Source: Candidatus Aldehydirespiratoraceae bacterium (GTDB lineage Bacteria; Actinomycetota; Acidimicrobiia; Acidimicrobiales; Aldehydirespiratoraceae). From it: a stretch of 32,000 bases of DNA. This document shows positions 12,960 through 31,721 of this stretch, in pieces. The stretch is from NCBI GenBank assembly GCA_965208435.1, contig OZ242337.1:1422100-1454099 (forward strand), given 5' to 3'. Within the stretch, counting starts at the first letter, position 1. Each line of letters begins with the position of its first letter. The position numbers and the translations under genes were made by a program. The notes below the pieces were generated by a model, which made no database searches, had not been told where the DNA came from, and saw only the letters and a list, made by a program, of their open reading frames with translations.

Positions 12960-12960
12960 C

Positions 12961-15196: not shown

Positions 15197-15217
15197 GGTC
15201 CCCTCCTTTGGGTCCAG

Positions 15218-16465
15218 TTATGGATCAGCAACCCCGCACCACTGCGCGATGAAGTGGGCGAGCGTACGCGTGGCAGTGACCAGTTCGTCTACGGCCAGCC
15301 GCTCGAACGGCGTGTGACAGTGGGAAATGTCTCCCGGAGCGAAGTAGACGCCGGGAATCCCCAGCTCCCGCAGAAACGGCTTCTCCGACCAGTAGGGGGC
15401 ACCCTCGATCCGAGCGCCCTCTCCGGTCACCTGTTCAATCGACCGGGCCAACACCGCAACCCCCGGATGGTCGACGTCCAGTTCGTCGGGCGTCCCTCCG
15501 AAACGGTGGTCCCGCGGCGCGCTGAACTCCACTGTGCAGTCCACTGAGTGCTCGTCGGCGATCTGTTGGGCGATGGTTCCGATCCGCCCGGCGGCGGTGT
15601 CGAGGCTCTCACCGGGAAGCACCTTGCGGATCAGTGACAGCTCGAAGCGTCCCGGCACCGCGATGTTGCCTCCCGAGGTCACCGAAGTGACCAGCAGGAA
15701 CGCCTCCCCGAGCAGATCATGTGCAGCGACGCCTGAGCGCAGTTCCTCGGAATGGCTCCAAAGCCCCTCCAGCAGGCTGTGGCCGGCCTTGAGAGCGTCC
15801 ACACCGAGCTCCGGGCGCCCGAAGTACGCGGACACCCCGGTATAGCCGATATCGGCTATCAGGAATCCCATCTGCGCCGTGTAGATCGCCGATGTCGTCG
15901 GCTCCGTGTAGATCGCGAAGTCCGCTTCGGGCCATTTCCCGTCGCGGTCCTTCACCGCGGCGCGCATCCCCGCGGACACGCCGCTGCCGGGCTGTCCCGA
16001 CTCCTCGTCGCACACGAACAGCGTCGAGACTCTGCCAGCGGGCCGCAGGCCGACCCTCTCGAATGCGCGGACCGCCTCGATGATCGCGCAGATCCCCGCC
16101 TTCTGGTCCGCGACCCCGCGTCCCCAGATGGCGCCGTCGATGATCGGCGAGGCGAACGGGTCCTCACGGTCGGTTCCCTGCCAGTGCTCCGTCCAGTCGT
16201 CGGTCGCCACCGTGTCGAGATGCCCGGCCAGCAGCAGCGACCGCCCCGAGCCGCCCCCGGCCGAGCCGTGCACATTGGGTCGTTTCGGGGCGCATTCCAC
16301 CAGTTCGGACTCACCGAACACCTCGGACTCGTTGATTCGACCGAAGACCCAGTTGGCGAAGGCCTCCTCGTTGGGAGTCACACTGGGGATCCGAACTGCT
16401 TCGCGCACGAGTTCTACGAGCGCATCGCTGTCGACGGCGCCTGCGACCTCTAAAGCAGCGCTCAT
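15218..16465 (-). CDS. M20-family metallopeptidase (ArgE/DapE-like deacylase/peptidase)
   Basis: 415 aa; 'LLLAGHLDTVATDDW', 'IWGRGVADQKAGICAI', 'FVCDEESGQPGSG'. Confidence 0.88.
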   Translation of the reverse strand: MSAALEVAGAVDSDALVELVREAVRIPSVTPNEEAFANWVFGRINESEVFGESELVECAPKRPNVHGSAGGGSGRSLLLAGHLDTVATDDWTEHWQGTDREDPFASPIIDGAIWGRGVADQKAGICAIIEAVRAFERVGLRPAGRVSTLFVCDEESGQPGSGVSAGMRAAVKDRDGKWPEADFAIYTEPTTSAIYTAQMGFLIADIGYTGVSAYFGRPELGVDALKAGHSLLEGLWSHSEELRSGVAAHDLLGEAFLLVTSVTSGGNIAVPGRFELSLIRKVLPGESLDTAAGRIGTIAQQIADEHSVDCTVEFSAPRDHRFGGTPDELDVDHPGVAVLARSIEQVTGEGARIEGAPYWSEKPFLRELGIPGVYFAPGDISHCHTPFERLAVDELVTATRTLAHFIAQWCGVADP

Positions 16466-17655
16466 CTCTGCTGGTCTCCCAAGATCTCTGTGACCAGGGA
16501 CTCATGCACGGAACGCAGAGACATCGACACCGCTCCTACCAGAGCTGCCCGGCGGCCCAGAGTCGATGCCGAAAGCTCGGGAGGCGGGTCGACCAACCGG
16601 GAGAGGTGCAACCGGACTGCGTCCACGAACACCGGGTTGCTGCCCACACCTCCGCCGAAAACGACATGCCCGGGGTCTGCGATCAGACACAGGTGCGATA
16701 CCGCCAGCGCCATGGCCCCTGCCACCTCGTCGAGCACGGACCGCGCCGCATCGTCGCCCGCTTCAACGGCTTCGAATATTTCCGGCACATCCGCGCTGGG
16801 GTCGAGCGCGGAGCGGAGCCCGTCCTCGATCGCGCGTCCGAACAGCTTGCGGATCGAGGGCGCGGAGGCCACATCCTCGAGGGTGACCGGCACCGCGCCG
16901 GGGGCGGGCAGCGACAACAGCAGGGAGCCGACCTCGCCCGCAGATCCGGTGCCGCCCCGGTATAGGTCTCCGCCGACCACCATTCCCAGACCGATACCCG
17001 TGCCGACGGAGATTGCCGCGAAGTCCCTGTCGGGCTGTCCGGCCCCCATCTGAGTCAATTCGCCCAGCGCAGCCAGGTTGACGTCGTTCTCTATGTGGAC
17101 ACGACCGTCCATGCGCTCTGAGAGGAACTCGTGCACCGCCAGACCGTCGAACCCGGGCAGGTTGAGGGCCTGTTCCACGCGGTCGCGGTCACGCCGGTAT
17201 ATTCCGGGCACTCCGATGCACACGCCGCTGCAGGGTCCGTCAATGCTCCGAAGCATCTCAGTGGACGTGCCGACGAGACCATCCAGCGCCGTCCGGGCAT
17301 CGGGACCCGTCTCCACCTCGCACTCGACGACCAGATTGCCCAACAAGTCGCAGACACCGACCAGCATCTTCGTGGCGCCGATGTCGGCGACCACTGAGTG
17401 CCGGGCCGTCGGAACCAGTTCGTAGAGGGCGGCAGGGCGGCCGATCGAACCAGACTTGGGGCTGTCGTTGGCGACTCGGACCAACCCTGCGGACTCCATG
17501 TCAGCGACCAGCGCCGACACAGTCGGTTTGGAGAGGCCGGTGGATCGGGCGATCTCGGCCCTCGACATCCTTCGGGGGTGTGACGCGAACAGTGCGTCAA
17601 CAATCCGTTGGCCACTGATCAGCCTCAGTACAGCGCTTCCAGACCCTTCGCTCAT
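16462..17655 (-). CDS. ROK-family transcriptional repressor
   Basis: 397 aa; N-terminal wHTH 'MSRAEIARSTGLSKPTVSALVADMESAGLV' plus ROK sugar-kinase-like domain. Confidence 0.9.
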   Translation of the reverse strand: MSEGSGSAVLRLISGQRIVDALFASHPRRMSRAEIARSTGLSKPTVSALVADMESAGLVRVANDSPKSGSIGRPAALYELVPTARHSVVADIGATKMLVGVCDLLGNLVVECEVETGPDARTALDGLVGTSTEMLRSIDGPCSGVCIGVPGIYRRDRDRVEQALNLPGFDGLAVHEFLSERMDGRVHIENDVNLAALGELTQMGAGQPDRDFAAISVGTGIGLGMVVGGDLYRGGTGSAGEVGSLLLSLPAPGAVPVTLEDVASAPSIRKLFGRAIEDGLRSALDPSADVPEIFEAVEAGDDAARSVLDEVAGAMALAVSHLCLIADPGHVVFGGGVGSNPVFVDAVRLHLSRLVDPPPELSASTLGRRAALVGAVSMSLRSVHESLVTEILGDQQR

Positions 17656-17656
17656 A

Positions 17657-17679
17657 TTGTTAGTAATCTTACCTTACAA
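17657..17679. promoter_or_regulatory. imperfect palindrome abutting the ROK repressor start codon (candidate autoregulatory operator)
   Basis: TTGTTAGTAATCTTACCTTACAA; arms TTGTtAG / CTtACAA, at -2 to -24 from the ATG. Confidence 0.4.
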
Positions 17680-17829
17680 ATCAGGAATGTCAAGAAAGAT
17701 TCGACTGAGCCAAAACGGCTGGCCGCCCGGCGAAAAACACAGCGCAGCTCCGACTACACCCGCCAATAACACAGCACAGTTCCTGCTACGCTCGGCAACA
17801 ACAAGGCAAAGCACAGTAGCGTCAACGGG

Positions 17830-18540
17830 ATGTACAACCTGATCCTGGTGCGCCACGGGCGTTCGGAGTGGAACGACCTCAACCTCTTCACCGGCTGGTA
17901 CGACTGCCCGTTGATGGAGACCGGTCGACAGGAGGCCCGCGACGCCGTGCCGCTGCTGGCCGAGGCAGGCCTGCTGCCGGACATACTCCACACCTCGCTG
18001 CTGCAACGGGCCATCGAGACCGCCGAGATCATCCTCGCCGGACTCGACCGCCGGTGGATTCCCGTGCGAAGGCACTGGCGGCTCAACGAACGCCACTACG
18101 GCAACCTCACCGGCCTCGACAAGGCCCAGGTCGGCGAGATCCACGGTGCCGAACAACTCCGGCAGTGGCGACGCAGCTACAGCACCCCGCCACCGCCGAT
18201 CAGCGAAGACAACGAGTTCAACCCGGCGAAGTCCGCCGCCTACGCCGACCTCGCACCGGAACTGATGCCCGACACCGAGTGCCTCGCAGACGTGGTGGAC
18301 CGGCTCTTGCCCTACTGGTACGACTCGCTGGTCCCCGACCTGCGCACCGGCCGCAACGTCATGGTCGCCGCCCACGGCAACTCACTGCGGGCCCTCGTCA
18401 AACACCTCGACAACATAAGCGACGACGAGATAATCGAACTCAACATCCCCACCGGCGTCCCCCTGCACTACACCATCGGCCCCGACATGCGCCCCACCGA
18501 CCAGGCCCACCCCCTCGACCGGGCCCTGACCGCCGACTGA
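17830..18540 (+). CDS. gpmA: 2,3-bisphosphoglycerate-dependent phosphoglycerate mutase
   Basis: 236 aa; '[22 protein letters not shown]', '[15 protein letters not shown]', '[16 protein letters not shown]'. Confidence 0.96.
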
Positions 18541-18587: not shown

Positions 18588-19739
18588 CTAGATCAAGGGC
18601 TGAGGTACCATCCATAGATTTTCGGCGGACCGCCGAAAGAAACCCGCGGGATGCTGTTCTTGCGCCGCCTTCATACGTTCGGCATTCAAGTTCTTTGGGT
18701 TTGCTTCGGTCATTCGAAGCGCTTGAAGACCACCGCAGACTACTTTCGCCGAATACCAACCGAGCCTTTGCGCTCCAATAGGCAACCGGGGTGTTAGATC
18801 CACTGCAAAGGCTGGTCCAGCGGTGCGTTCCATCTCGTTCGCAAGTTCAGCGAGAGTCAGTGGTCGTCCATCTGTGTGATTCGACGCGGGCGGCACGAAC
18901 GCGTCAACCCACTCCCGGAGCGACTGATTCGCTTCCTCAGAAGTCCAGTACTTCGCGCGAGTGAGGTCATCGACAACGTGCCGTGGCGGCACCTGGCCAT
19001 GGGCCGTGAAAACACCGCGGAGCACGCAAAGGACCTGGAGGGCCTCACGAAGCGCTCGGCAACTACCCTCGAGACTTGAGTATGAGATCGCGGCACCTAC
19101 CGCACTGGCCGGCGCCGGACCAATGACACAACCCACGAAAGCGCTGTACCCCGGGATTGGGGTCGCCATACGAGCGATCACAACGTCGGTATCTTGTTCT
19201 TCAGCGCTCGTCAAAAGGCGGTCCATGCTGCTTGATCCTCGGTGTTCAGCGAGATCGACTCGTTCGAGTCTGGCTTGAAGATTCCACGCGACCATCACCG
19301 CATCCCGTTCAACGAGTTCGAGCAGGCCCGACCGTATGGCGGCTTCAAGACTTGGACCGGATGCCGCGCCAGACGGCGACGGGTCAACCGTCGCATTGGT
19401 GTTGATGTCAAGTGGATAGTCCACCTCGACCTCGGGGACATCGACGGTCTGTTCCCAGTCCGAAAGCCTGAAGCCAGAATATGACGTTTCGCGGAGCGCG
19501 CTCGGAAAGAGCGAGCGGCGCTCAACCGCCTCCCCAACGCCACGCAGAATCGTGTCGTGCCGGGTCAGACCCGCCGCACCAACCAGCGCTAGGGAGTGTG
19601 CCTCGCTATCAGTTGCCCCGTTTCGGCCGATATTAATAGCAAGAGTCCACAGCCTACAGTTCTCAACGCACGGCGGGTAGAGCGTGGCGCTGCTGGCCAC
19701 ACCTACCGACGGCTCCAGGGTTTCGAGGTATTTTATCAC
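18588..19739 (-). CDS. YcaO-domain protein (RiPP tailoring candidate), last gene of the operon
   Basis: 383 aa; YcaO motifs 'RGVGEAVERRSLF', 'IRSGLLELVERDAVMVAW', 'SSLEGSCRALREALQ'; 4-bp start/stop overlap with the upstream dehydrogenase gene. Confidence 0.82.
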   Translation of the reverse strand: MIKYLETLEPSVGVASSATLYPPCVENCRLWTLAINIGRNGATDSEAHSLALVGAAGLTRHDTILRGVGEAVERRSLFPSALRETSYSGFRLSDWEQTVDVPEVEVDYPLDINTNATVDPSPSGAASGPSLEAAIRSGLLELVERDAVMVAWNLQARLERVDLAEHRGSSSMDRLLTSAEEQDTDVVIARMATPIPGYSAFVGCVIGPAPASAVGAAISYSSLEGSCRALREALQVLCVLRGVFTAHGQVPPRHVVDDLTRAKYWTSEEANQSLREWVDAFVPPASNHTDGRPLTLAELANEMERTAGPAFAVDLTPRLPIGAQRLGWYSAKVVCGGLQALRMTEANPKNLNAERMKAAQEQHPAGFFRRSAENLWMVPQPLI

Positions 19740-20995
19740 GTCGCCCCGTTCTCGGAAGCTCTCGGCACTCCAACGGATGCTTCATGCAGAATGGCTTCGA
19801 CATCCTCAACCGTGAATCGGCTCAGCACAGGGCGCGGGGCACCCCAGCGATCAATGATCGTTTCCGCCAGCGTGTGGATTTCGGCTTCAGAGAAATCTAG
19901 GTCGGTGCCTGATGGGTGACGTAGCAATTGCTCAAGCTCCTCAGCACCCGAAAGACCGAGTGCTTGAGTCACCTCACAGACCCTACCTGGAAAGCCCCAC
20001 CGGTCGTCGCCGGTCACAACGCGCCGCAGCCAAGGGCCGACTAGCGCGCTGGTCGCCTTGACCTTCCTGATTCCGGCGATCGTCGCCATTTCGTTGGCGA
20101 CGAACCACAGGGGCGATCCGATCGGAGGTCGCCCCTTCAGGGCAGCAGAGGTGTGCGTCGATGCGCTCAGCCAACCAGATGTAAGACGAGCATCGGTATC
20201 ACACAGTCCGGTTTCGGGGAGGCGCAGCATCAGCGCCAGCGATCTGAGGAGACTCTCTGCGACGATGTCTGGGATCGTCAGCTTGTACGGCGTGTTAACC
20301 ACCGGGCCGAGGATCCGCACGAATGCCTCGAACAGCCCCTCCCAAACGGATGTCGCGCTGAGCGTTGATGTTGCAACGCTGTCCAGAATCGCCTCATCAA
20401 AGTGTAGAGATCGTCCCCGGAGCAACAGTCTCTGATCCTGGATCCTCAAACAGGCAACAGAACTCACCTCACTCCCGGTGCCCACCGTTGTCGGAATCGC
20501 TACGAACCAGCGATCATCTCGGTGAGTCCGTTCGACGGTCAACAGGCTGCTTCGCTGTGCTTGCTTTCTCCATCGCCCGATCTGGCTCGGACTCGTGCTC
20601 GCGATGCGCGCGAGTTTTGCTACATCAAGGGTGTTTCCACCGCCGATCGCCAGCACCGTGGTTGGCTTGAGATCAGCCAACCAACGGGCAACCCTTTCGA
20701 TTTCGGACAGATCGGCATCCGGCGCGACTTCAATAACCGGACCCCGGTAACTATCGCTGAGCCACGGGCCGAGCAATGGCATGCGGCTGACCACCTTATC
20801 AACCGCGACCGCGTCAAGGTTCACCGTTGCGAGTGCTCGAAGAATCGAGTTGTCGCCGACCGTGAGCTTTTGACTGATCTGTTGCCAAGGTTCGCCCGGT
20901 TGGCGTCGAGCGACATCAAGTTTACGTCGCAAGTACGTACTCCACCGCTTCGAACGCAAGATCCAGCATTTCATCAAGTTCCTCCGAGGACGCAA
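19736..20995 (-). CDS. Fe-ADH-type dehydrogenase, candidate daptide-type oxidative decarboxylase (MpaB-like)
   Basis: 419 aa; 'TTVLAIGGGNTLDVAKLARI', 'FVAIPTTVGTGSEVSSVAC'. True start probably downstream of 20995, since the ORF overlaps the aminotransferase by 74 nt. Confidence 0.8.
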   Translation of the reverse strand: MRPRRNLMKCWILRSKRWSTYLRRKLDVARRQPGEPWQQISQKLTVGDNSILRALATVNLDAVAVDKVVSRMPLLGPWLSDSYRGPVIEVAPDADLSEIERVARWLADLKPTTVLAIGGGNTLDVAKLARIASTSPSQIGRWRKQAQRSSLLTVERTHRDDRWFVAIPTTVGTGSEVSSVACLRIQDQRLLLRGRSLHFDEAILDSVATSTLSATSVWEGLFEAFVRILGPVVNTPYKLTIPDIVAESLLRSLALMLRLPETGLCDTDARLTSGWLSASTHTSAALKGRPPIGSPLWFVANEMATIAGIRKVKATSALVGPWLRRVVTGDDRWGFPGRVCEVTQALGLSGAEELEQLLRHPSGTDLDFSEAEIHTLAETIIDRWGAPRPVLSRFTVEDVEAILHEASVGVPRASENGAT

Positions 20996-22178
20996 CGAAT
21001 GCGGGAACCAATTGAATGCAGGACGGTCCGGGCTGAACGATTACCCCGCGGCGTAACGCCTCAGTGACGATCTCGCCTACTCGTTGTGGCTCAACGATCG
21101 TCCCTTTCTCATCATGGAGCACAACCGCACGGAATAGCCCGGTGCCGCGCGTGCCTGCAACAAACCGGTTTGAAGCAGAACGCTCAGCGAGCCCGTTGCA
21201 GAGCTGCTCGGCTAACGCCTGGCGTCGCGCTTCAGCGCCGTATTCGATGTGCTGTTGGATTGAGGCGATCATTGCAGCACAAGACGGGGGGGTTCCAGCC
21301 TGCGTCTCGCCATGCACGAATGCGGCGTCGGCGGCGGAGAAGCGCTCACTGACGCGTTCCGACCAAAGAACGGCTGAGGCAGCAGCGGCGCCATTGGTCA
21401 GAGCTTTGCTGAGAACCAACACGTCGGGAGTCACTGGCCAAGTTGAATGCGCGAATAGAGGACCGGTGCGGCCAAACCCTGTGGCGACCTCGTCGGCGAC
21501 AACCAGGACTCCGTACTGTCGCTTCGCTTCAAGGATTTCAAGCAACAACTCCATCGGAGGTTCAATCGCCCCCGAGCCAAGCAACGGCTCTAGCACGACG
21601 GCGGCTACCGAGTCGCCTGAATGGGCAATGAGTCGTCGAAACTCGTCGGCAGATCCCACAGCAACGTGGCGCACATGTCGCTGGTCAGCCCCGTACAAGA
21701 GCTGACCGAGATTTTCTCCTGAAAGCGCCACAGCTCCGAGCGTCGTACCGTGGTAGCTGCCCTTCATGCTGACTACCAACCGGCGTTGGTGCGCCTGCTC
21801 TAGGTTCCAGAACTGCCGCGCAACCTTGATCGTCGCATCAATAGCGGCCCCACCAGATGTCGCAAAGAGGACACGTTGGAAATTGGGCCCGGCTAGCGTC
21901 AGCAAGAGATGGGCCGCCTCCTCGGCAAATCTATGGTTGTAGCGAAAGAGTGTCAGGTATGAAGCTTCGATGAGGGAGGAGTGCACCGCGTCCGCGACCT
22001 GGCGGTTCCCATAGCCAAGGCTGACGTTCCAGAGACCGCTCGTCGCACATAGGCGTCTTTGGCCGTCCAGAAAATCAACGCGGACGCCATGTGCACTGAC
22101 GGCCATTCGCAGAGGGGGCGAAGAAACACTCGGCGGCGTGAAGAACTGAACCACCGAGCTCTCGGTATGCTCACTCAT
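20922..22178 (-). CDS. class III PLP aminotransferase, candidate daptide-type (MpaD-like)
   Basis: 418 aa; 'SMKGSYHGTTLGAVALSG', 'VVADEVATGFGRTG', 'LSKALTNGAAAASAVL'. Confidence 0.85.
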   Translation of the reverse strand: MSEHTESSVVQFFTPPSVSSPPLRMAVSAHGVRVDFLDGQRRLCATSGLWNVSLGYGNRQVADAVHSSLIEASYLTLFRYNHRFAEEAAHLLLTLAGPNFQRVLFATSGGAAIDATIKVARQFWNLEQAHQRRLVVSMKGSYHGTTLGAVALSGENLGQLLYGADQRHVRHVAVGSADEFRRLIAHSGDSVAAVVLEPLLGSGAIEPPMELLLEILEAKRQYGVLVVADEVATGFGRTGPLFAHSTWPVTPDVLVLSKALTNGAAAASAVLWSERVSERFSAADAAFVHGETQAGTPPSCAAMIASIQQHIEYGAEARRQALAEQLCNGLAERSASNRFVAGTRGTGLFRAVVLHDEKGTIVEPQRVGEIVTEALRRGVIVQPGPSCIQLVPAFVASSEELDEMLDLAFEAVEYVLAT

Positions 22179-22632
22179 CGTGTTCCTTTAGGTAAGTGGT
22201 CACATACAGCCGTCGATCCTCGATGTGGTGCTGAGCAGCGGCTATGCACGTTCGTGACGCGATTAATAGGCCTCTCAGCTCCGCTTCCCGGTCAACGGTG
22301 TCCTGAGTAAGAATTCTTGTCGATGTCGTCCAAACGCGAATCGGTCGTGCGTTTGAAGCGACCGTCACATGACGACGAAGGGCCTCCGTGTCGACATACT
22401 CGAAGAGGGTGAACTCCTCGTCGCCGAGATCGATCACGGTGGTCGACTCCTGAGACAAGGACTTGGGTAGATCGACTTCGAGCAAAGAAAGAACGAAGCG
22501 GCCTCCGGGCCGTAGCATCTTCCACACTCGGTCGAAACAGTCACTGCGGTCCTCAGCAGACAGGAGGCTGATCGAGCTCGTACCGACAACTACGACATCA
22601 GCCCCTGAGTCCAGGCAGAACTCCTGCATTAG
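22171..22632 (-). pseudogene. C-terminal part of the IS-disrupted class I SAM methyltransferase (includes one TSD copy)
   Basis: 152 aa in frame 'MQEFCLDSGADVVVVGTSSISLLS...VWKMLRPGGRFVLSLLEVDLPK...' continuing the N-terminal fragment when the IS is removed. Confidence 0.88.
22628..22632. repeat. left target site duplication ATTAG
   Basis: ATTAG immediately before the IS terminal CCTGG; matches the copy at 24246-24250. Confidence 0.93.
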
Positions 22633-24245
22633 CCTGGATCCACCGGTGGGGTTGGGTTGTTGGTGTGTTCGCGTCCGCGGAAAAGGCCTCCTGGTCTGCG
22701 ATGATTGTGATGACTAAAAGTCACTTTCGTCACAAAAACAGGAGGCACTTTTCGTGTCTGTATCATCGCGCAGGTTGGACCGGTTGGCAACAACGTTTGA
22801 TCATGAGGGCCTGGTAGCGAACGCGGGCCTGGTTCTGGCTGCGACGTTGTTCGCTCGTTTGGGTCTGTCGGGGTTGATCAAACGGTGGGTGGACACTGGT
22901 TCGCCGAACCCGGACCGCAAGGTTTTGACGGTGGTCGCAGCGATGCTGGCGGGTGGCACCCATATTGATCATGTCGACATGCTGCGCGCCGGGCGCACTG
23001 GCAGCGTGTTGGGGTTTGCCCCCGCGGCGCCGTCGACGGTGGGAACGTTTCTGCGGACCTTCACGTTCGGTCACGTCCGCCAGCTCGAAGCGGTGGCCTC
23101 GCGGGTTTTGGCGCGGGCCTGGCAACTCGGCGCAGGCCCGGGCTCTTCGCCGTTGGTGGTGGATCTGGACTCCACGGTCTGTGAGGTGCACGGCAAACTC
23201 AAGCACGGCGCCTCCTACGCCTACACCAAAGTGTTGGGCTATCACCCGCTGCTGGCTGTGCGTGCGGGCACCTCTGAGGTGCTCGGAGCGCGGATGCGCA
23301 AAGGCTCCGCTCACTCATCGCGTGGTGTGCTGCGCTTCGTCGATGAGCTCATAGCCAACCTCAAACGCGCGGGTGCTGCCGGGCCGGTCACGATACGCGC
23401 CGATTCGGGGTTCTGGTCCTGGGGGCTGATCGACCGTCTCAACACTGTTGACGTGAAATGGTCGATCACCGTGTCGCTGAACTCTGCTGTCCGCGCCGCT
23501 ATCGAGACGATCGGCGACAAAGCCTGGGTTGACATCGACTACCCCAAAGGGGGCCACGCCCAAGTCGCCGAAACCCTCTATACCACCGGCCGCGGCAAAC
23601 AACGCCGCACCGTGCGCCTCGTGGTGCGCCGCACCCGCCTCACCGACCGCGCCCAGCAACGGCTCTGGCCCAACTGGCGCTACCACGCCTTCATCACCAA
23701 CAGAAACGACCTCAGCACCGTCACAGCAGACCAATTCCACCGCAACCACGCAGTCGTCGAGCTCGCCATCCGCGACCTCAAAGAAGGCTCCGGACTCAAC
23801 CACATCCCCTCCGGGCACTACCCAGCCAACTGTGCATGGCTCGCCTGCGCCGTGCTCGCCCACAACATCGGCCACTGGACCGCCATCCTCACCAACACCA
23901 CACCAGCCACCAACCAAACCCGCCGCACCCGCCTCACCGCGCTGCCCGCCGTGCTCGTCAACCGATCCGGCACACACACCCTGCGATACCCCACCCGCTG
24001 GCGATGGCAAACCCAATTCACCAACACACTCACCAAACTACGAAACCTGCCCGGACCCTCCGGCTAACCCCCACCACCCAAAGGAACCCGGCACCCTCCA
24101 GCACACACCCAGCGCCACCAACCCAACCCAACCCCTGAACCCTGAACCCAACACGCCCCAACACACCAAACCCAGTCCCAAACACCCAACCCGACACCCG
24201 CCCACCAACCACCCCACCCACCAACACCGAATCGGTGGATTCAGG
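22633..24245 (+). mobile_element. complete IS1380-type insertion sequence, 1613 bp
   Basis: imperfect terminal IRs CCTGGATCCACCGGT / CCTGAATCCACCGAT (13/15), flanking 5-bp ATTAG duplication, full transposase inside. Confidence 0.92.
22754..24067 (+). CDS. IS1380-family DDE transposase
   Basis: 437 aa; 'SSPLVVDLDSTVCEVHGKLKHGASYAYTKVLGYHPLLAVRAGTSEVLGARMRKGSAHSSRG', 'HNIGHW'. Confidence 0.92.
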   Translation: MSVSSRRLDRLATTFDHEGLVANAGLVLAATLFARLGLSGLIKRWVDTGSPNPDRKVLTVVAAMLAGGTHIDHVDMLRAGRTGSVLGFAPAAPSTVGTFLRTFTFGHVRQLEAVASRVLARAWQLGAGPGSSPLVVDLDSTVCEVHGKLKHGASYAYTKVLGYHPLLAVRAGTSEVLGARMRKGSAHSSRGVLRFVDELIANLKRAGAAGPVTIRADSGFWSWGLIDRLNTVDVKWSITVSLNSAVRAAIETIGDKAWVDIDYPKGGHAQVAETLYTTGRGKQRRTVRLVVRRTRLTDRAQQRLWPNWRYHAFITNRNDLSTVTADQFHRNHAVVELAIRDLKEGSGLNHIPSGHYPANCAWLACAVLAHNIGHWTAILTNTTPATNQTRRTRLTALPAVLVNRSGTHTLRYPTRWRWQTQFTNTLTKLRNLPGPSG

Positions 24246-24250
24246 ATTAG
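24246..24250. repeat. right target site duplication ATTAG
   Basis: ATTAG immediately after the IS terminal ...TCAGG. Confidence 0.93.
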
Positions 24251-24595
24251 GCCCGTTTCAACGCTGAGGTTACTCCGTCGCCGAGAGAGGCGCGGATCCG
24301 CGTCAATTGTCTCTTCTAAGAAGCGGAGCATCTCTGGCGAGTTATCGACAGCGATCACTTCGGCACCTATTGCGAGAAGTGCCTTCGTGATCCTCCCCGA
24401 ACCGGCTGCAAGCTCCACGACGCGGGTCCCGCGGCCCCCGCATGCCCGGATGATCTCTGGAAGCTCGGAACGATCGTTCTCAGTCAGGTGGTGGTAGAAC
24501 GAGGCACCAGCAACGTACATATCGCCTCGTCGCTCAGCCGAGCAGCGGGCCCACGCGATGCCGCCTCGACCCGGCGGATCGGCTACGGGGGTCAT
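24246..24595 (-). pseudogene. N-terminal part of the IS-disrupted SAM methyltransferase, candidate daptide-type (MpaM-like)
   Basis: SAM motif I 'TRVVELAAGSGRITKALLAIGAEVIAVDNSPEML'; ORF runs into the IS at 24245; ATGA overlap with the upstream gene. Confidence 0.88.
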
Positions 24596-25599
24596 CTCGT
24601 TTCGTCGCAGGATAGCCGGTCTCCAAGTATCTGGGCCTGGACCATCTCACAGCTTTGGACAGCTTGAAGTGATGGGATGCCGAACACACTTGAGATCGCT
24701 TCGATCGCTTCAGTTCGGCTCGCTGTTCCGAACATGATTTCTACGATCGTGGCTGCATCTGGGGGTGCTTTGAGGACCTGGCCAGTCACCGGGTTTGCGA
24801 CCAGATGATCACTCCCATCGAAGAGCACGATCGGAGAGTCGGGACGCTCGGTTGGCAGCTTCGGCAGTACTCCTTGGGTCGTTCTGTAACCGAAGCCACT
24901 GACGAGGGGCATCTCCTTGACGTGTCTCGTCGACACCCGGCGCATGACACCTAGGACGGCTAGGTAACGGCCGAGCCATGGTCGCTCGCTGGTTCCTCGC
25001 TGCAGCTCAGTCCGCGTAGCGGCCTCTGAGACACACCGCTCGGCGGTTCCACCAAAGTAGCTCGGCTGCGTCGACCCATCTTTCCCAACAAATCGACGGG
25101 CACCTGAGGCACTGGCACAGGTGCGCGAGGAACTCAGCGCGCATTCGTCAGCAAACGCAACATAGGGGTGAAGTAGGTGCGGTCGAAAGACGCCTTCGTC
25201 GACGGCATCGTCAGCATCGGCGAGGAAATCCGCGACATCCTCAGTCGAGTGGACCGTGAAAAGGGTTGGGCCGGTGGTCGGAATGTAGGCCCCTGTCGCG
25301 TACGCAAACGAGGTCACCGAGAGGCCGCTGGAGAGCGCAAGTTCGTCGCCGTCGAAGTTGAGCGACCCCGTGTATGTGGCGATGTCGCCTCGAGAATTGA
25401 CGCGGCCCACTAGCTCTTCGGGGACAAATATCAGGCTGGTGGCCGGCAGATCCAGCGATTCAAGTACCGCAGCCGGTGCTCCCGGAAGTATGAGTACCTC
25501 CTTGGGGAACGTGGACACCGAACCCGGTCCATTGTCATACGTGCCGGTCAGCACTCGCTGAAGCCGCATCGCAGCATCTTCTCTACCACTACCCAGCAT
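24592..25599 (-). CDS. putative RiPP recognition/accessory protein (daptide MpaC-like position and size)
   Basis: 335 aa without catalytic motifs; C-terminal 'HLVANPVTGQVLKAPPDAATIVEIMFGTASRTEAIEAISSVFG' resembles a winged-helix/RRE-like segment; located between M50 protease and methyltransferase. Confidence 0.55.
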   Translation of the reverse strand: MLGSGREDAAMRLQRVLTGTYDNGPGSVSTFPKEVLILPGAPAAVLESLDLPATSLIFVPEELVGRVNSRGDIATYTGSLNFDGDELALSSGLSVTSFAYATGAYIPTTGPTLFTVHSTEDVADFLADADDAVDEGVFRPHLLHPYVAFADECALSSSRTCASASGARRFVGKDGSTQPSYFGGTAERCVSEAATRTELQRGTSERPWLGRYLAVLGVMRRVSTRHVKEMPLVSGFGYRTTQGVLPKLPTERPDSPIVLFDGSDHLVANPVTGQVLKAPPDAATIVEIMFGTASRTEAIEAISSVFGIPSLQAVQSCEMVQAQILGDRLSCDETR

Positions 25600-25611: not shown

Positions 25612-27180
25612 TTAACTTGTTAGAGATTCGATTGCCGGCTGAACCACACGTTGCCTTGCCCAGCTGCTTGGTGACAGGCCAGGCTGATGCGCGACTGAGC
25701 GGAGCGCCGCCTCTCGTGGTGCCAGCTCCGATATGAGCTCGATCGGAACACACTGTGCCTTAGAGGTCAGCGCCAACCCGGTTATCGGGACGATGGCCTC
25801 GAGTGGGGTTTCGCAGGACACGGCCGGACCAGTGACGCGCGCTCGGCCTAGTTCAGCTCCAAGCACCAGCCCGCCGCTGTGGATGACAATTTCCATCCCG
25901 ACGTCGATCCCGTCCTTGCTCACTGTTCCCGTCGGGAAGACGACAAACCAATTTCCATCGGTTTGCGTGACGCCACCGACGTAGCGGTTGTCTATCGTGG
26001 TAAACGACAGCGCGGCCGACACGCCCAGCACAGCCACGAGCAACCAGCAGGCCGCTCGGAGCGGTCTTGCTCCTTCTCGCAACACTCTGACGGTCCGGCG
26101 GACCGCGATCCGAAGTGCATAGAAAGAGAGACCAGCGATTAGCGCGAATAGCGCCGCCGCGCCAGGCTTTTCCAGTGCCATCAGCAGGGATCGAATGGCA
26201 ATGATCGCATACATGATGAGCACGATGGGTACAACGAGAGACACGAATCCAAACATGGGTGTCCAGCTGCGGGTCGGCTCCCTGCGGGGACCGCCCAGCA
26301 GTCGAAACGACACCCAGGCCCAGAAGTCGTCAATTGATTTCCTGCGGAGATGTGAGATATCAAGCCATGTGGCGAGAGCCAAATATCCATCCAGCTTGAC
26401 GAAAGGTACAAGGTTGAATAGTGCGAACGCGTAGCATGCGAGACCAAATACCACGAGACCTGTCACGAGTTCGCCGCTGACCGCGTAAGCCAACAAGACG
26501 GCAACGCCTCCCATGGCAGCATGGGCACCAACTCCTGCGAGAGCCACCGCGACTCGTTGGCGCGGCTCAAGCCGCCATGCGCCGGTCACATCACAGAAGA
26601 ACGCGGGCGAGAGGTAGAAGAGCATCACGCCCATCCGCCGAGGTGACTCGCCATAGGCCATCAGGGCGCCGGCATGTGCCATTTCGTGAACGAACGTCGA
26701 AAAAAGGAGCGATATCAATATCGCGGCATACACCTCGATCGAAATGGACGACCCCAGGGAATCGTCAACCAGCTGTCGATTCGTACCGAGGAGAATCAGT
26801 CCCGCGCCGGCAATCGAAAGAAAGAGAAGCCTGATTCTGGGCCTGAGAACGGCGCGAGCGACGCTAGCTAACCAACGCAGCCGAACGGATGGATCAAGGA
26901 GACTGATCTGCAGCGAGAACGGTGGCCGGAACTGAACGCGCTTTGGGCGGATCTCAGCGCATTCGGACAAGAGTTCAAGCCTCTCGAGTTGCCCTCTAGT
27001 CGCCCCCACGAGGGCTGGAAACCATGGCGGCCCGAGGAGTTGCGACACCTCGCTATCTGATATCGTTGGAGCTTGGATCAAGATGTCACGCACCCGTGAA
27101 GCGTCATGCCCGATCCGAACAAACTGGCCGTTGGCTGTCTCGACCAACACGGCTGGGGTTGCCTGATCAGGAGCGGTCAT
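25612..27180 (-). CDS. M50-family intramembrane metalloprotease, candidate leader peptidase (MpaP-like)
   Basis: 522 aa from MTAPDQ...; zinc motif 'FVHEMAHAG', second motif 'NLVPFVKLDGY', many TM segments; ATGA overlap with the permease stop (27177-27180). Confidence 0.85.
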   Translation of the reverse strand: MTAPDQATPAVLVETANGQFVRIGHDASRVRDILIQAPTISDSEVSQLLGPPWFPALVGATRGQLERLELLSECAEIRPKRVQFRPPFSLQISLLDPSVRLRWLASVARAVLRPRIRLLFLSIAGAGLILLGTNRQLVDDSLGSSISIEVYAAILISLLFSTFVHEMAHAGALMAYGESPRRMGVMLFYLSPAFFCDVTGAWRLEPRQRVAVALAGVGAHAAMGGVAVLLAYAVSGELVTGLVVFGLACYAFALFNLVPFVKLDGYLALATWLDISHLRRKSIDDFWAWVSFRLLGGPRREPTRSWTPMFGFVSLVVPIVLIMYAIIAIRSLLMALEKPGAAALFALIAGLSFYALRIAVRRTVRVLREGARPLRAACWLLVAVLGVSAALSFTTIDNRYVGGVTQTDGNWFVVFPTGTVSKDGIDVGMEIVIHSGGLVLGAELGRARVTGPAVSCETPLEAIVPITGLALTSKAQCVPIELISELAPREAALRSVAHQPGLSPSSWARQRVVQPAIESLTS

Positions 27181-27923
27181 CCCAGGCCCTTTTTGTCGAT
27201 CACAAACCACGCGACCGTGGTCACAACGGCGACCCAACCACAGAAGACAACGATGCCAACCGCCCAGCCCACCGTCTCGAAGCTCTGATCCCGATAAATG
27301 GCTAGCTGTGCACCCCCCGGGAGCCATCGGCCGATACTCGGGGACAGCGCCAGCAAAGCCGACTCGGCCGCAAGGGTCCAGACAATCGCGCCGATGATTG
27401 TCGGGACCTGACGCCTTCCGAGCCAGCCAAGCGCCGCACCCCATAGTCCAGCCAGGCCAGAAACCAAGAAGACCCCGATCGCGGTCTTGACCATCTCACT
27501 GTTCCACTCAAGTCGGACGTCCTGTTGCGCCGCCCAGAGTGTCGCAGCAGCTATCCCGGTCCCTGCCCCCACCAGGCCAAAAACGACGCCGGAGCCAATT
27601 CCTGCGACTGCCTTGCCCAAGAAGAGATTTCGTACACGGCCAGCGCTGATGAGAGACCTGATGATGGATTCATTTTGGAACTCCCGGGTCACAATGAGAA
27701 TGCCGACGATCATCGCGAACAGCGAACTTGCAAACCCCAGCGAGAGTATCTGTTGTGTCGCGTCATCGGCTCCCACGGCGCCGATGACGTGCTCGTCGGC
27801 GAGAGTTCTACCAGTCCCAAACATGGCAGTGGCATTTAGAACACCGGAGAAGAGCGAAAGAACCAAAAGCGTACGTCCGGCGCAGAGCTTGATGAACTCC
27901 GCGCGAAGTGTTCGACGCAGCAC
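27177..27923 (-). CDS. ABC-2 type transporter permease
   Basis: 248 aa; multiple TM segments, 'ILIVTREFQNESIIRSLISAGRVRNLFLGK'. Confidence 0.85.
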   Translation of the reverse strand: MLRRTLRAEFIKLCAGRTLLVLSLFSGVLNATAMFGTGRTLADEHVIGAVGADDATQQILSLGFASSLFAMIVGILIVTREFQNESIIRSLISAGRVRNLFLGKAVAGIGSGVVFGLVGAGTGIAAATLWAAQQDVRLEWNSEMVKTAIGVFLVSGLAGLWGAALGWLGRRQVPTIIGAIVWTLAAESALLALSPSIGRWLPGGAQLAIYRDQSFETVGWAVGIVVFCGWVAVVTTVAWFVIDKKGLG

Positions 27924-27925
27924 GG

Positions 27926-28657
27926 TCAGGTTTTCTCGTCAGGTTGTGCGGTCCCGACGGTTACTTCGAGGTACCGATCCTCGAGCGTGCTTGCCCCAGA
28001 AGCCGTGAAGTCGTTCCTGCTGCCCTGGTACCTCACTTGGGTATTCAGTATCGTGACTTGGTCAACGATCTGTTCGATCTCAGTCAAGACATGACTGCAA
28101 AGGATTACGGCCCCGCCACCGTCTGCATGTGCCCGTAGCAAGCGTCGCAACCAATGGATCCCCTGTGCGTCGAGTCCGTTGTGGGGTTCATCGGCTATCA
28201 ATAGACTCGGATCGCCGATCAAGGCAGTTGCGAGCGAGAGACGGCGGCGCTGCCCCGTGGACAACTTCCCCACTCGCCGCTTTGTCAGGCCACTCAATCC
28301 GCACTCCTCGACTAGGTCGTCGACCCGTCGCATCCCCGTGCCAGAGCCAACCGCGGCGGCACGCAGATGACGGCCGACGGTCATGTGGTTGTCAAGCCCA
28401 TTTTCCATCAGCACCCCCACCACCAAGGCGGGGTCAGGCAGATCTAGCAGTCTGGAACCGTAGATCAGGACACTGCCCGATGATGGAGGCGTGATGCCTA
28501 GAAGGCACTTCAGTACGGTCGTCTTCCCCGAGCCATTCGGACCGAGCAGTCCGTGGATCTCGCCCGTCTTGACAACAAGACTCAAATCGTCCACAGCGTT
28601 CACATCCCTGTAGGACTTCGTCAGGCCAGATATCTCGACAGGATGATTGTCACGCAT
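27926..28657 (-). CDS. ABC transporter ATP-binding protein
   Basis: 243 aa; 'GLLGPNGSGKTTVLKCLLGI', 'LSTGQRRRLSLATALIGDPSLLIADEP'. Confidence 0.93.
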   Translation of the reverse strand: MRDNHPVEISGLTKSYRDVNAVDDLSLVVKTGEIHGLLGPNGSGKTTVLKCLLGITPPSSGSVLIYGSRLLDLPDPALVVGVLMENGLDNHMTVGRHLRAAAVGSGTGMRRVDDLVEECGLSGLTKRRVGKLSTGQRRRLSLATALIGDPSLLIADEPHNGLDAQGIHWLRRLLRAHADGGGAVILCSHVLTEIEQIVDQVTILNTQVRYQGSRNDFTASGASTLEDRYLEVTVGTAQPDEKT

Positions 28658-28666: not shown

Positions 28667-28873
28667 CTACTTTGGCTGCTGTTTCGAGCGAAACACGCCA
28701 ACTGACGCCAACAGCGACAGGGAAGCCAACATCAGGAGGAACGCCAAGCCGATCGTCGTACCATCAGCGAGGCCAGCGTTGATCACCCAGACTGATAGGC
28801 CAGCGAGACACGCTGCAACCCCTGCGAGCCCCGCTGCAAACTGAGGTGAGGCGGCAAATCTCGGAGACTTCAT
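28667..28873 (-). CDS. small two-TM membrane protein of the RiPP operon
   Basis: 68 aa from MKSPRFAASPQF...; two hydrophobic segments; purine-rich GAGAGAGAG upstream; lies between precursors and ABC ATPase. Confidence 0.6.
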   Translation of the reverse strand: MKSPRFAASPQFAAGLAGVAACLAGLSVWVINAGLADGTTIGLAFLLMLASLSLLASVGVFRSKQQPK

Positions 28874-28922
28874 AGTTTCTATCTCTCTCTCGTGTGTCTC
28901 GAAAGTACTACCGAAGAAGCGC

Positions 28923-28955
28923 GGAGCCCCCGGTGGCATAGCCACAAGGGACTCC
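28923..28955 (-). promoter_or_regulatory. intergenic hairpin between precursor genes and maturation genes (attenuator/processing candidate)
   Basis: GGAG-c-CCC-cg-GTGGC-ata-GCCAC-aa-GGG-a-CTCC, 12 pairs with internal mismatches; no T-tract. Confidence 0.45.
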
Positions 28956-28964
28956 ACGCTTGGC

Positions 28965-29141
28965 TCAGGTGATGGCTACTCCGACGTAGAATAGGGCGAC
29001 CAAACCGAGGCCAATTCCAACGCCCGTAAAGAACGAACCCCAGCCCCAAGGGGCCTCAAGGCTCTCCATTGGTTCCATCTGTAGCGACAACAAAGCAAAC
29101 TCCGCGTCGACAACATCCTGCGTCAATTCCATGGTGTTCAT
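28965..29141 (-). CDS. RiPP precursor peptide 1 (daptide-like, C-terminal Thr)
   Basis: 58 aa MNTMELTQDVVDAEFALLSLQMEPMESLEAPWGWGSFFTGVGIGLGLVALFYVGVAIT; strong SD GGGAGGTGA; absent from the supplied ORF track. Confidence 0.85.
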   Translation of the reverse strand: MNTMELTQDVVDAEFALLSLQMEPMESLEAPWGWGSFFTGVGIGLGLVALFYVGVAIT

Positions 29142-29187
29142 CGATTCACCTCCCTTCGAGGTTAGACGGCGATGGGATGGCTCAGGG

Positions 29188-29367
29188 TCAGGTGACCGCT
29201 ACGCCCAACGCAACGACAGCAAAGCCGATTACAATGCCGGTGGCCAGGCCCGCAAAGAACGAACCCCAGCCCCAAGGGGCCTCAAGGCTCTCCATTGGTT
29301 CCATCTGTAGCGATAGCGATGCGGTTTCAACATCGACGCTAGCGGGGGCCAAGTCAACGATAGTCAT
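29188..29367 (-). CDS. RiPP precursor peptide 2 (daptide-like, C-terminal Thr)
   Basis: 59 aa MTIVDLAPASVDVETASLSLQMEPMESLEAPWGWGSFFAGLATGIVIGFAVVALGVAVT; strong SD GGGGAGGTGA before the internal ATG; ORF track over-extends it to 29448. Confidence 0.85.
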   Translation of the reverse strand: MTIVDLAPASVDVETASLSLQMEPMESLEAPWGWGSFFAGLATGIVIGFAVVALGVAVT

Positions 29368-29814
29368 TTTCACCTCCCCTCTAGTGGTAGGAAGTGCGGA
29401 ATTCGGGCAACAGCAACGGAGGCAAGACGCTGGAAAATAGCGGGGCATCTCTTTCGGAAATGTCAGGAATACCTACGACTATATGACTTCTCTGTGTGTC
29501 GCGCAAGCCGGGGCCAAGTTCTTGGACCATGCCGATTCGACGCCAGCACCAAAAGCTGAGGCACGGAGAAACCGCCTATCGAATTTCGAGGGGAGGGGGG
29601 AGTGACACTAAGGTGGCTCTAGGGGCTCGCCTTCTCTTGGGATTTGTCAGGAAACACTTCTTTTTGCGGGGGCGAGCCTCTCGTATCCCAGTTCCCACCC
29701 AACGAGACACGCAAGCCCAGGGTCTTCTTCACGGGCTCTCACCGCCGACTGATTCCCCGCAACGGAGACACCCGCAGGACAGCGACAGAGAATGCTGGTT
29801 CTGGCGGCGCCCCC

Positions 29815-30480
29815 TAACCCGGATTTTTCAGTAGGGGGTCTGTGTGGGGGTGGTTGCTTTCACGAGATGCCCTCCTGGTGTGGGAGAATCAGGTTTGCAA
29901 GGAGATTCTGGGGCCACATCAGGGGGGCACTCGTATGGTGAATGAGCTTACTGGCAGTCGGCCGCGGTTGAGGTTCACTGGCGGGGGGCGGGGTCTGGCT
30001 GTTCATGCCGGGACGCGGCTGCTGGCTGATCTGGCCGACAACACGGGGTTGACGGCGGCGTTGTCTGAGGTGATGGCGTCGACCAAGGTGCGGGACCGGG
30101 GCCATGACCGGGGCCGGGTGCTTGCTGACGCGGCGGTGATGATCGCCGATGGTGGCGAGGCGATCAGCGATATCGCCGCGCTGGGTTGTCAGCGGGGGCT
30201 GTTCGGGGAGGTCGCGTCGCTGTCGACGCTGTGGCGGACCCTTGATGCTGCAGGGGGCCGTGTCGAACAGATCAAAGCGGCGCGGGCCACAGCGCGCCGC
30301 GCGGTGTGGGCCGCGGGCGCGGACCCGGGGTTCTATGTGATCGACATCGACGCCACGCTGGTGGACTCGCACTCAAACAAGCAGGGCGCCGCGGGGACCT
30401 ACAAGGGCGGCTTCGGGTTCCATCCGCTGATGGCGTACCTCGACGCGACCGGCGAGGCGCTGGCCGGTCTTTTGGGAGGT
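29815..30480 (+). mobile_element. 5' fragment of a second, different IS1380-type element
   Basis: IRL-like 'taacccggatttttcagtaggg', transposase from 29935 'MVNELTGSRPRLRF...FYVIDIDATLVDSHSNKQGAAGTYKGGFGFHPLMAYLDATGEALAGLL' cut at ~30480. Confidence 0.75.
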
Positions 30481-31311: not shown

Positions 31312-31395
31312 AGGCTGCAGCCTCCTGTCCTAAGACCGCCAACCCTGCCCGATGCGACTTGAAAAAACTCAGAATCTGTCGCGCGAAGTCAGATG

Positions 31396-31721
31396 CAACA
31401 CACAACCTCTCAGCTCACAAGCACAAGACCATCCACAACTGGGCCTCTAACAACAACGTCGAGCTGTGCTACACACCGACCTACAGCTCCTGGGCCAACC
31501 CCATCGAGGCGCACTTCGGGCCGCTGCGAGAGTTCGTGCTCAACAACTCCGACCACCCCAACCACACCGTGCTCACCCGCCGGCTGCACGCCTACCTGCG
31601 CTGGCGCAACGCCAACGCCCGCGACCCCGACCTGCTCGCCGCGCAACGCCGCGAACGCGCACGAACCCGAGCCGAGAAAGGCCACCGCTGGGGCCGACCA
31701 CACCCACAAGCAGCATGAAAC
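31396..31721 (+). pseudogene. C-terminal fragment of an IS630-like transposase
   Basis: 'NNNVELCYTPTYSSWANPIEAHFGPLREFVLNNSDHPNHTVLTRRLHAYLRWRNANARDPDLLAAQRRERARTRAEKGHRWGRP' without the N-terminal two thirds. Confidence 0.65.

Follow-up and report, generated by a model that had tools for sequence, protein, structure and literature searches.

The gene cluster on this contig for daptides, a type of ribosomal peptide (RiPP), carries a methyltransferase gene, dapM, that is interrupted by an insertion sequence (IS), and the explanation that we consider very probable as a whole is a recent transposition of an IS1380-family element into dapM of a daptide cluster in an Acidimicrobiales genome. An apparently active, multi-copy IS of this family would have transposed into an ATTAG site within dapM and duplicated the 5 bp of its target. 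The interruption of the gene is genuine and clear from the sequence, yet events of this kind are ordinary, and it leaves the current understanding of IS elements and daptides unchanged. The features on which this reading is built are listed in Table 1, with positions counted along the window, as we call the whole 32,000-nt stretch of DNA analysed.

Table 1. Features of the interrupted daptide cluster and of the inserted element, in window coordinates.
Feature	Coordinates	Strand	Evidence and remarks
YcaO, DapY-like by genomic context	18588..19739	-	PF02624; 4-nt overlap with dehydrogenase gene
Fe-ADH-type daptide dehydrogenase, DapC-like	19736..20995	-	NF041822 225.2 bits (cutoff 300, not reached); above cutoff for PF00465
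Daptide aminotransferase, DapD-like	20922..22178	-	NF041821 493.9 bits (cutoff 450); first gene downstream of IS; own AAGGA Shine-Dalgarno
dapM 3' part, residues 117-268 and stop	22171..22627	-	NF041820 positions 96-236, about 84 bits
Target-site duplication ATTAG, left	22628..22632	.	Single copy at the L002 empty site
IS, IS1380 family, new unnamed member	22633..24245	+	1613 bp; independent 99.6%-identical copy in L011, same ends
Left terminal inverted repeat CCTGGATCCACCG	22633..22645	+	Terminus common to L011, L012 and both L002 IS copies
Transposase gene, 437 aa	22754..24067	+	GTG start, AGGAGG Shine-Dalgarno upstream; sole ORF of IS
Truncated fusion ORF, 185 aa	24038..24595	-	116 methyltransferase residues followed by 69 from IS antisense strand; identical to database protein P0004
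C/A-rich non-coding IS tail	24068..24232	+	Motifs of CCCAACCC type, with complement GGGTTGGGTTG close to left end (inverted-repeat search)
Right terminal inverted repeat	24233..24245	+	Reverse complement is CCTGAATCCACCG; 12/13 identical to left repeat
Target-site duplication ATTAG, right	24246..24250	.	Perfect match to left copy
dapM 5' part, residues 1-116, SAM motif I ELAAGSG	24246..24595	-	NF041820 positions 4-89, about 84 bits
Daptide RRE protein, DapB/MpaB-like	24592..25599	-	NF041823 161.8 bits (cutoff 150); operon-upstream of IS
Daptide intramembrane HExxH metalloprotease, DapP-like	25612..27444	-	NF041824 315.7 bits (cutoff 300)
ABC transporter (permease 27177-27923, ATPase 27926-28657)	27177..28657	-	Profile matches
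Precursor peptide A1, 58 aa, ends ...VGVAIT	28965..29141	-	NF041808 daptide_123 26.7 bits (cutoff 25); conserved in L003
Precursor peptide A2, 59 aa, ends ...LGVAVT	29188..29367	-	Weak daptide-model matches, below cutoff; conserved in L003

The inserted element and the gene that it splits

The transposase matches the NCBIfam profile NF033539 (IS1380 family transposase) at 280.3 bits over profile positions 3-419 of 419 and Pfam PF13701 (DDE_Tnp_1_4) at 132 bits, both above the respective cutoffs of 180 and 34.7 bits. The transposase, the size, the terminal repeats and the target duplication all place the element in the IS1380 family. With the IS ends fixed independently from the second copy (L011), the chance of a 5/5 match between the flanks is about 0.0013. 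The complementary motifs shared by the tail and the left end have a putative role in transposase binding. No second copy of the same IS was found within the window; an IS1380-like ORF at 29842-30657 was considered as one and rejected, being part of a different, truncated element with 32% identity.

The target lies in codons 116-117 of dapM. In silico deletion of 22633-24250 joined 350 and 457 nt into an 807-nt ORF of 268 codons plus a stop, with the junction reading ...SVETGL-MQEFCLDSG..., and this outcome depended on the exact boundaries: excisions displaced by 1 or 2 bases either way broke the frame and introduced 5-9 stops, the open frame being kept only by exact excision or, trivially, by a 3-base shift. 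The restored 268-aa protein scored 179.3 bits against the daptide_MTase profile NF041820, marginally above its cutoff of 175, and the intact orthologues P0237 and P0243 scored 181.9 and 192.6 bits. The split halves reached 84.4 and 83.7 bits on complementary parts of the profile, which leaves the present gene below the cutoff. The restored gene would therefore encode a daptide-type methyltransferase (DapM/MpaM), whose predicted reaction, from its family and from published work (PMC10036551), is N,N-dimethylation of the C-terminal 1,2-diaminopropane. As it stands, the gene is divided in the middle of the Rossmann domain, and neither fragment, one of 116 aa with a 69-aa nonsense tail and the other of 152 aa, can work as an enzyme.

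The first-pass annotation had proposed an IS1380-type element with these boundaries and flanking ATTAG copies, an exact excision that restores a 268-aa enzyme, and a separation of SAM motif I from the remainder of the fold. All of this was borne out, by the two profile matches above cutoff, by the sequence at both junctions and the repetition of the same ends in L011, by an 807-nt ORF that passes NF041820 and has 268-aa orthologues, and by the separate regions of the profile matched by the two halves. For annotation, this means that the 185-aa and 152-aa fragments belong together as one pseudogene; natural-product studies can take the repaired gene directly from the sequence left by exact excision.

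The daptide cluster and the likely consequences of the insertion

The genes are arranged in the order of 2 Thr-terminated precursors, ABC exporter, HExxH protease, DapB, DapM, DapD, DapC and DapY, an order found also at 3 related loci (L001-L003). Both precursors end in Thr and have in common the leader LSLQMEPMESLEAPWGWG, with a conserved leader motif ...LQMEPMESLEAP.... Despite its score below the cutoff, the dehydrogenase has NF041822 as its best match by about 180 bits, and we read it as a probable divergent DapC-type member and not as an absence of this function. The nearest named homologues of the YcaO protein (30-33% identity) are themselves encoded in daptide clusters (L013 and L014), and its C-terminus reads ...VPQPLI, not the full PxPxP. 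By gene content, the cluster is of a known type, daptide genes with a daptide-associated YcaO, and it should be labelled as daptide/DapY with a disrupted dapM, since otherwise genome mining mispredicts the product.

With dapM split, the N-methylation of the daptide C-terminal amine has almost certainly been lost. The consequences of such a loss can be anticipated from the literature: omission of mpaM yields a primary amine (PMC10036551), and DapY acting in vitro without DapM cyclised the unmethylated amine to 4-methylimidazoline (Miz), in contrast to the Diz obtained with DapM (bioRxiv 10.1101/2025.07.11.664356). The expectation of the first-pass annotation, a primary amine variant or nothing, is a reasonable hedge but an incomplete one, as it was formed without recognising a daptide cluster with a DapY-type YcaO. 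The first step of the pathway requires DapB and DapC (PMC10036551).

The orientation of the element, claimed earlier to be antisense to the operon, is indeed so, with the transposase gene on the plus strand and the cluster genes on the minus strand. In this tightly coupled operon the IS would interpose about 1.4 kb of untranslated RNA (1408 nt) and a convergent transposase gene before dapD, dapC and dapY, and the polar effect on these genes that the first-pass annotation considered is plausible. IS insertions within operons are commonly polar, and stretches with C in excess of G occur at 23200-22700, near the exit from the IS. We lean, if only slightly, towards a strong reduction of dapD, dapC and dapY expression, and because DapC performs the first step, a strain with reduced expression of these 3 genes would yield little or no mature daptide.

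The rival that survives best, although we rate it somewhat under even, holds that the insertion is non-polar and that dapM is knocked out naturally in a strain which still matures its peptides, now Dap- or Miz-terminated. This would be in keeping with a scan that predicted no intrinsic terminator within the IS on the strand of the operon, with the presence of a Shine-Dalgarno sequence belonging to dapD itself, and with a weak promoter-like site at 22790-22762, in the left end of the IS, that faces outward to dapD and was recognised by a sigma-70 consensus uncalibrated for Acidimicrobiia. Rho loading would also be disfavoured by the overall richness in G of the antisense transcript of the IS (G 0.37, C 0.27), and the conversion of unmethylated Dap into Miz by DapY in vitro provides a route for the peptide; the long untranslated and convergently transcribed segment, the stretches of C excess over G near the IS exit and the usual polarity of such insertions weigh in the other direction. 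That read-through transcription suffices is a nearly balanced proposition, inclining a little to the negative. Were it to suffice, the peptides would carry 1,2-diaminopropane (primary amine, M-45) and/or Miz (M-63) ends, and neither of the methylated termini, Dmp (M-17) or Diz (M-49), would be made, all shifts being relative to the unmodified core.

Related loci, copies of the element and the age of the insertion

An uninterrupted 268-aa gene is present in the 3 related Acidimicrobiales loci, L001-L003. Intact orthologues of 268 aa are 97, 86 and 78% identical to the restored protein. The 90% protein cluster contains 5 full-length members; the source contig alone supplies the fragments of 152 aa and 185 aa. 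Once the IS was excised in silico, the window was collinear with a relative at 96.2% identity over 7.6 kb. At the empty site of L002 the two window flanks align with an overlap of exactly 5 bp, and L002 reads GGGCCTAATGCAG, the same as the restored window. The comparison of the junction with related genomes that the first-pass annotation had called for thus returned the predicted empty site.

Elsewhere, the source chromosome holds 4 transposase variants at least 99% identical. The independent copy in L011 (1613 bp, 99.6% identical, identical ends) is flanked by a CTAAA 5-bp duplication, a 90% relative, L012, by ATTAG, and IS copy B of L002 by CTTAG; taken over 4 other insertion sites of the IS, a 5-bp duplication was found at each and was perfect at 3. 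The target sites ATTAG, ATTAG, CTTAG, CTTAG/CTAAG and TTTAG (the last in reverse complement) point to a probable NTTAG preference. With 4 or more near-identical copies in a single genome and an empty site in siblings, the element looks multi-copy and active. For mobile-element biology, this records an apparently active IS1380-family element with defined ends in Acidimicrobiales.

L002, a sibling 96% identical to the window, has lost both precursor genes by deletion about 110 bp from 2 copies of a related IS, with all its enzyme genes intact. One could see in this a wider pattern, in which the hit in dapM is one case of recurrent independent inactivation of the daptide cluster within one Acidimicrobiales clade, or else suppose that the IS yields a natural unmethylated, Miz-terminated chemotype, and we regard this pair of proposals as unlikely. 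Recurrent inactivation, if true, would point to selection for giving up the peptide and retaining export or immunity, as in cheater genotypes.

The insertion itself is evolutionarily recent, as the first-pass annotation had held, because the changes specific to the window lineage in dapM are 9 synonymous against 2 non-synonymous and because the IS copies are 99.6% identical. The substitutions were counted from blastn alignments that included an 85% relative; they are comparable to those of the neighbouring genes, and the intact L001 allele of dapM shows 7 synonymous and 2 non-synonymous lineage changes. Relaxed selection on dapM was considered and rejected, these lineage-specific counts showing no relaxation. 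An old insertion, with dapM long a pseudogene and the whole cluster a decaying relic, is accordingly very improbable: IS debris does lie beside the cluster (29842-30984), and the missing precursor genes of L002 suggest that the cluster is dispensable in the clade, but the dapM halves contain no frameshift and no stop, the target duplication is perfect, the remaining cluster genes are all intact ORFs, and both the substitution counts and the identity of the IS copies speak against long decay. Most improbable of all is an assembly artefact in which a repeated IS was wrongly threaded into an intact gene or strains were joined chimerically, for although the source genome has at least 4 near-identical IS copies and, like its relatives, is probably metagenome-assembled (a single contig), a misjoin at a repeat would connect a gene half to another locus, whereas here the two halves enclose a single IS, and the 5 bp duplicated perfectly around it, a duplication typical of this IS at its other sites, are a sequence that is single-copy in L002.

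Comparison with known systems

IS1380-family elements are typically about 1.6-1.7 kb long, with a single ORF, short terminal repeats and a 4-5 bp duplication. The window element resembles members such as IS1380 and ISEcp1 in its length of about 1.6 kb, its one DDE transposase, about 440 aa in size and aligned with NF033539 and PF13701 over their full length, its short terminal inverted repeats starting with CC and its 5-bp target duplication. It differs in a transposase whose identity to annotated IS1380-family transposases on PLSDB plasmids does not exceed 44%, the closest relatives (70-88%) being proteins from metagenome assemblies of Acidimicrobiales and other Actinomycetota, as well as in its 178-bp C/A-rich non-coding tail and its apparent NTTAG preference.

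For the interrupted enzyme, the nearest solved structure is that of MtfA (PDB 3g2m), a glycopeptide N-methyltransferase and, like DapM, a class I SAM methyltransferase, to which residues 25-247 of restored DapM align with an E value of 7e-14. The named daptide methyltransferases of Arthrobacter and Paenarthrobacter are only 34-43% identical to restored DapM, and the window gene, moreover, is split.

The cluster shares with the mpa cluster of Microbacterium paraoxydans and with the DapY-containing tfDap and saDap clusters the precursors with an invariant C-terminal Thr, the RRE protein, the Fe-ADH dehydrogenase, the class-III aminotransferase, the SAM methyltransferase, the HExxH membrane protease, the ABC exporter and the YcaO. 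It differs from these clusters in its host, an uncultured Acidimicrobiales lineage, in its interrupted methyltransferase, in a YcaO only about 30% identical to those of daptide clusters in Streptomyces and Paenarthrobacter, and in a dehydrogenase and a second precursor that fall under the NCBIfam cutoffs. The published dapM-omission experiments have a natural parallel in the disrupted allele. As in the omission of mpaM or DapM, the IS genetically takes only the methyltransferase out of the pathway; in the published constructs, however, the other genes were placed on engineered promoters, whereas expression of the genes downstream of the IS requires that transcription pass through it.

The insertion sequence and the gene it splits

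The minus-strand daptide methyltransferase gene (dapM) is interrupted by an insertion sequence (IS) lying between two copies of ATTAG, and the position of the IS and its duplications agrees with the first-pass annotation. The ends of the IS can be defined without its flanks because a second copy (L011) starts and stops at exactly the same bases. With the ends fixed, the chance of a 5/5 flank match in the window is about 0.0013. The termini, CCTGGATCCACCG on the left and CCTGAATCCACCG as the reverse complement of the right end, are identical at 12/13 positions. Its transposase gene starts with GTG, with AGGAGG 8 nt before it, and the product covers the whole profile of NCBIfam NF033539 'IS1380 family transposase' (280 bits, cutoff 180) and also matches Pfam DDE_Tnp_1_4. 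The right tail of the IS (24068-24245; 178 bp) is non-coding and C/A-rich. Several CCCAACCC-type motifs in it are complementary to GGGTTGGGTTGTTGG, which lies immediately inside the left end (22646-22668); they may be subterminal transposase-binding repeats.

Coordinates and profile scores of the features (window positions unless a locus is named)
Feature	Position	Strand	Remarks
Methyltransferase/IS fusion ORF	24595-24038	-	185 aa; residues 1-116 methyltransferase, remainder IS antisense
C-terminal methyltransferase fragment ORF	22629-22171	-	152 aa
Target-site duplication ATTAG	22628-22632 and 24246-24250		two copies, read from sequence
Duplication of L011	1091-1095, 2709-2713		
Duplication of L002	3849-3853, 5490-5494		
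IS	between ATTAG copies		1613 bp
Transposase gene	22754-24067	+	437 aa; sole long ORF of IS
Daptide aminotransferase		-	493.9 bits (cutoff 450)
Daptide RRE protein		-	161.8 bits (cutoff 150)
Daptide HExxH intramembrane protease		-	315.7 bits (cutoff 300)
Fe-ADH	19736-20995	-	top match daptide dehydrogenase, 225 bits, under equivalog cutoff 300
ABC exporter		-	cluster gene
YcaO		-	cluster gene
Precursor genes A1 and A2	28965-29141 and 29188-29367	-	operon head

As had been predicted, excising 22633-24250 restores an 807-nt ORF of 268 codons with the in-frame junction SVETGL-MQEFCLDSG. Excisions shifted by 1 or 2 bases destroyed the methyltransferase frame. The restored protein scores 179.3 on the NCBIfam equivalog 'daptide-type RiPP biosynthesis methyltransferase', above the cutoff of 175 (intact orthologues, 182-193), and the fragments reach 84.4 and 83.7 on complementary profile positions (4-89 and 96-236). 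Since the Pfam methyltransferase domain corresponds to residues 59-159 of the restored protein, the break at 116/117 cuts the Rossmann fold midway; the N-terminal fragment holds motif I (ELAAGSG) and the C-terminal one the DVVVVG and LRPGGRF strands. DapM activity is almost certainly lost.

The empty site in relatives and the age of the insertion

A protein search returned full-length 268-aa homologues of the restored protein at 97, 86 and 78% identity, and we compared three loci: L001 (a Logan contig), L002 (CBDHCN010000002.1, a 'Candidatus Aldehydirespiratoraceae' MAG, Acidimicrobiales) and L003 (OZ220692.1, an Acidimicrobiales MAG chromosome). The order protease, RRE, methyltransferase, aminotransferase, dehydrogenase, YcaO is found in 3/3, with the methyltransferase uninterrupted. 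The window with the IS removed in silico is collinear with L001 (96.2% over 7641 bp), and the window flanks match L002 positions 5606-10350 and 10346-14395, overlapping by exactly the 5 duplicated bases, so that the predicted empty junction exists in a related genome, where the site, GGGCCTAATGCAG, equals the restored window. The 90% protein cluster has five full-length 268-aa members, and its 152-aa and 185-aa fragments occur only on one 3,812,498-bp NCBI/ENA contig, which evidently represents the source genome.

With L003 as outgroup, 9 synonymous and 2 non-synonymous methyltransferase changes are specific to the window lineage, compared with 7 and 2 for the intact L001 allele; the window methyltransferase fares no worse than that allele or the neighbouring genes, and neither of its halves contains a frameshift or stop. 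The source contig carries four distinct transposase variants at least 99% identical, and the L011 copy, found on an unrelated metagenome contig from ENA, is 99.6% identical with its own duplication, CTAAA; L012, a 90% relative, is flanked by ATTAG. Annotated plasmid transposases reach at most 44% identity to that of the IS, which is therefore an unnamed IS1380-family member. Duplications at five sites of the IS group (ATTAG, ATTAG, CTTAG, CTTAG/CTAAG and CTAAA, reverse complement TTTAG) suggest NTTAG as its target sequence. The methyltransferase site reads ATCAG in L001 and ATACG in L003 (reverse complements of CTGAT and CGTAT), and thus the target is missing in both.

An ancient pseudogene, in which the insertion is old and the methyltransferase long inactive, is very improbable, being contradicted by the substitution pattern and by the near-identity among IS copies; these and the undamaged halves agree with the recent insertion first proposed, and the event fits a recent hop of an active element. 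An assembly misjoin at a repeat is still harder to credit, as it would neither put both methyltransferase halves around one IS nor yield a perfect duplication of a site that is single-copy in the sibling. The insertion finding is correct and now well documented.

The daptide cluster and the consequences for its pathway

All cluster genes around dapM lie on the minus strand. The precursors A1 and A2, both kept in L003, have a common leader (...LSLQMEPMESLEAPWGWG) and a C-terminal Thr, and A1 is above the daptide_123 cutoff; the enzyme set and the Thr-terminated precursors place the cluster in the daptide class (Ren et al., PMC10036551). The dehydrogenase is, by its top profile match, a divergent DapC; the longest ORF is matched only from its residue 87 onward, and the annotated start probably lies too far upstream. 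A candidate immunity protein is the 96-aa hydrophobic product of an ORF between A1 and the ABC ATPase (28667-28957, minus strand), which weakly matches the 'immunity/bacteriocin fusion' model TIGR04450 (E 0.002).

[quoted passage not shown] Daptide clusters often contain YcaO genes (DapY), whose products convert the monomethyl amine by cyclisation into 3,4-dimethylimidazoline (Diz) or, without DapM, the primary amine into 4-methylimidazoline (Miz) (2025 preprint, 10.1101/2025.07.11.664356). The window YcaO is DapY-like by context, because its closest named homologues (30-33% identical) sit inside daptide clusters of Streptomyces sp. MN13 and a Paenarthrobacter.

We lean slightly towards the IS being strongly polar on the downstream genes, which would mean no daptide at all because the first enzyme, DapC, is encoded downstream. 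Counted for polarity were the tight coupling of the operon, seen in its gene overlaps (RRE/MT ATGA, MT/AT 8 nt, DH/YcaO 4 nt), 1408 nt of untranslated IS RNA past the premature stop at 24038, the transposase gene convergent with the operon, and C>G stretches in the operon-sense transcript at 23200-22700. Counted against it were the lack of any predicted intrinsic terminator on the operon strand within the IS, a weak outward-facing promoter-like site at 22790-22762 (by a sigma-70 consensus not calibrated for Acidimicrobiia), the overall G-rich operon-sense transcript, and an AAGGA Shine-Dalgarno sequence belonging to dapD itself. If the IS is not strongly polar, products would end in the primary amine (Dap) or Miz, and the earlier expectation, a primary amine or nothing, is reasonable but leaves out the YcaO step.

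Other lesions, neighbouring DNA and known systems

Both precursor genes are gone from L002, the 96%-identical sibling whose methyltransferase is intact. Comparison of L002 1-5700 with window 28995-29695 places a deletion of ~655 bp (window 29650 to 28996) that leaves only the last 10 codons of A1 (SLFYIGVAIT), so that this cluster carries a lesion distinct from the one in the window. Just upstream, a related IS1380-family element (67% nucleotide identity to the window IS) occurs in two copies that are 99.9% identical to each other; they share the CCTGGATCCACCG termini and have CTTAG duplications (one CTTAG/CTAAG), and one of them is broken by an rve-type IS. In another sibling, a 24,436-bp ENA contig, the aminotransferase orthologue is called in two pieces (P0080 and P0081; 170 and 244 aa), either a further cluster lesion or a long-read frameshift error.

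IS debris occupies 29842-30984, directly upstream of the precursor genes: a plus-strand ORF (29842-30657) corresponds to the N-terminal 40% of another IS1380-family transposase (95 bits; 32% identity to the active one), and a minus-strand ORF (30373-30984) contains HTH_23/HTH_32 domains, as transposase N-termini typically do. Window 30523-31404 is common to L002 at 86%. A ~9.8-kb block (~8028-17805), flanked by DnaK (6087-7928), has no L002 counterpart, ~3.1 kb standing in its place; it encodes a glucosamine-6-P isomerase-like protein, two ROK proteins, sugar ABC transporter components, a YhfX-like racemase-fold protein and an M20 peptidase, and GC content falls to 0.52 at 8-10 kb. Just downstream of YcaO, window 17805-18534, which overlaps an unannotated 233-aa ORF (17674-18375), is present twice in L002 (1-389 and 15504-16234), on both sides of the cluster, with ~1.1 kb of additional DNA there separating YcaO from the matching segment.

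The loss of both precursor genes in L002, beside two copies of a related IS, hints at repeated inactivation of the daptide cluster in the clade, a more interesting lead than the dapM knockout itself. The latter is a single-gene IS knockout in which the RiPP class and the IS family are known and the IS member is new, and the closest solved structure to the restored protein is the glycopeptide N-methyltransferase MtfA (3g2m; E 7e-14).
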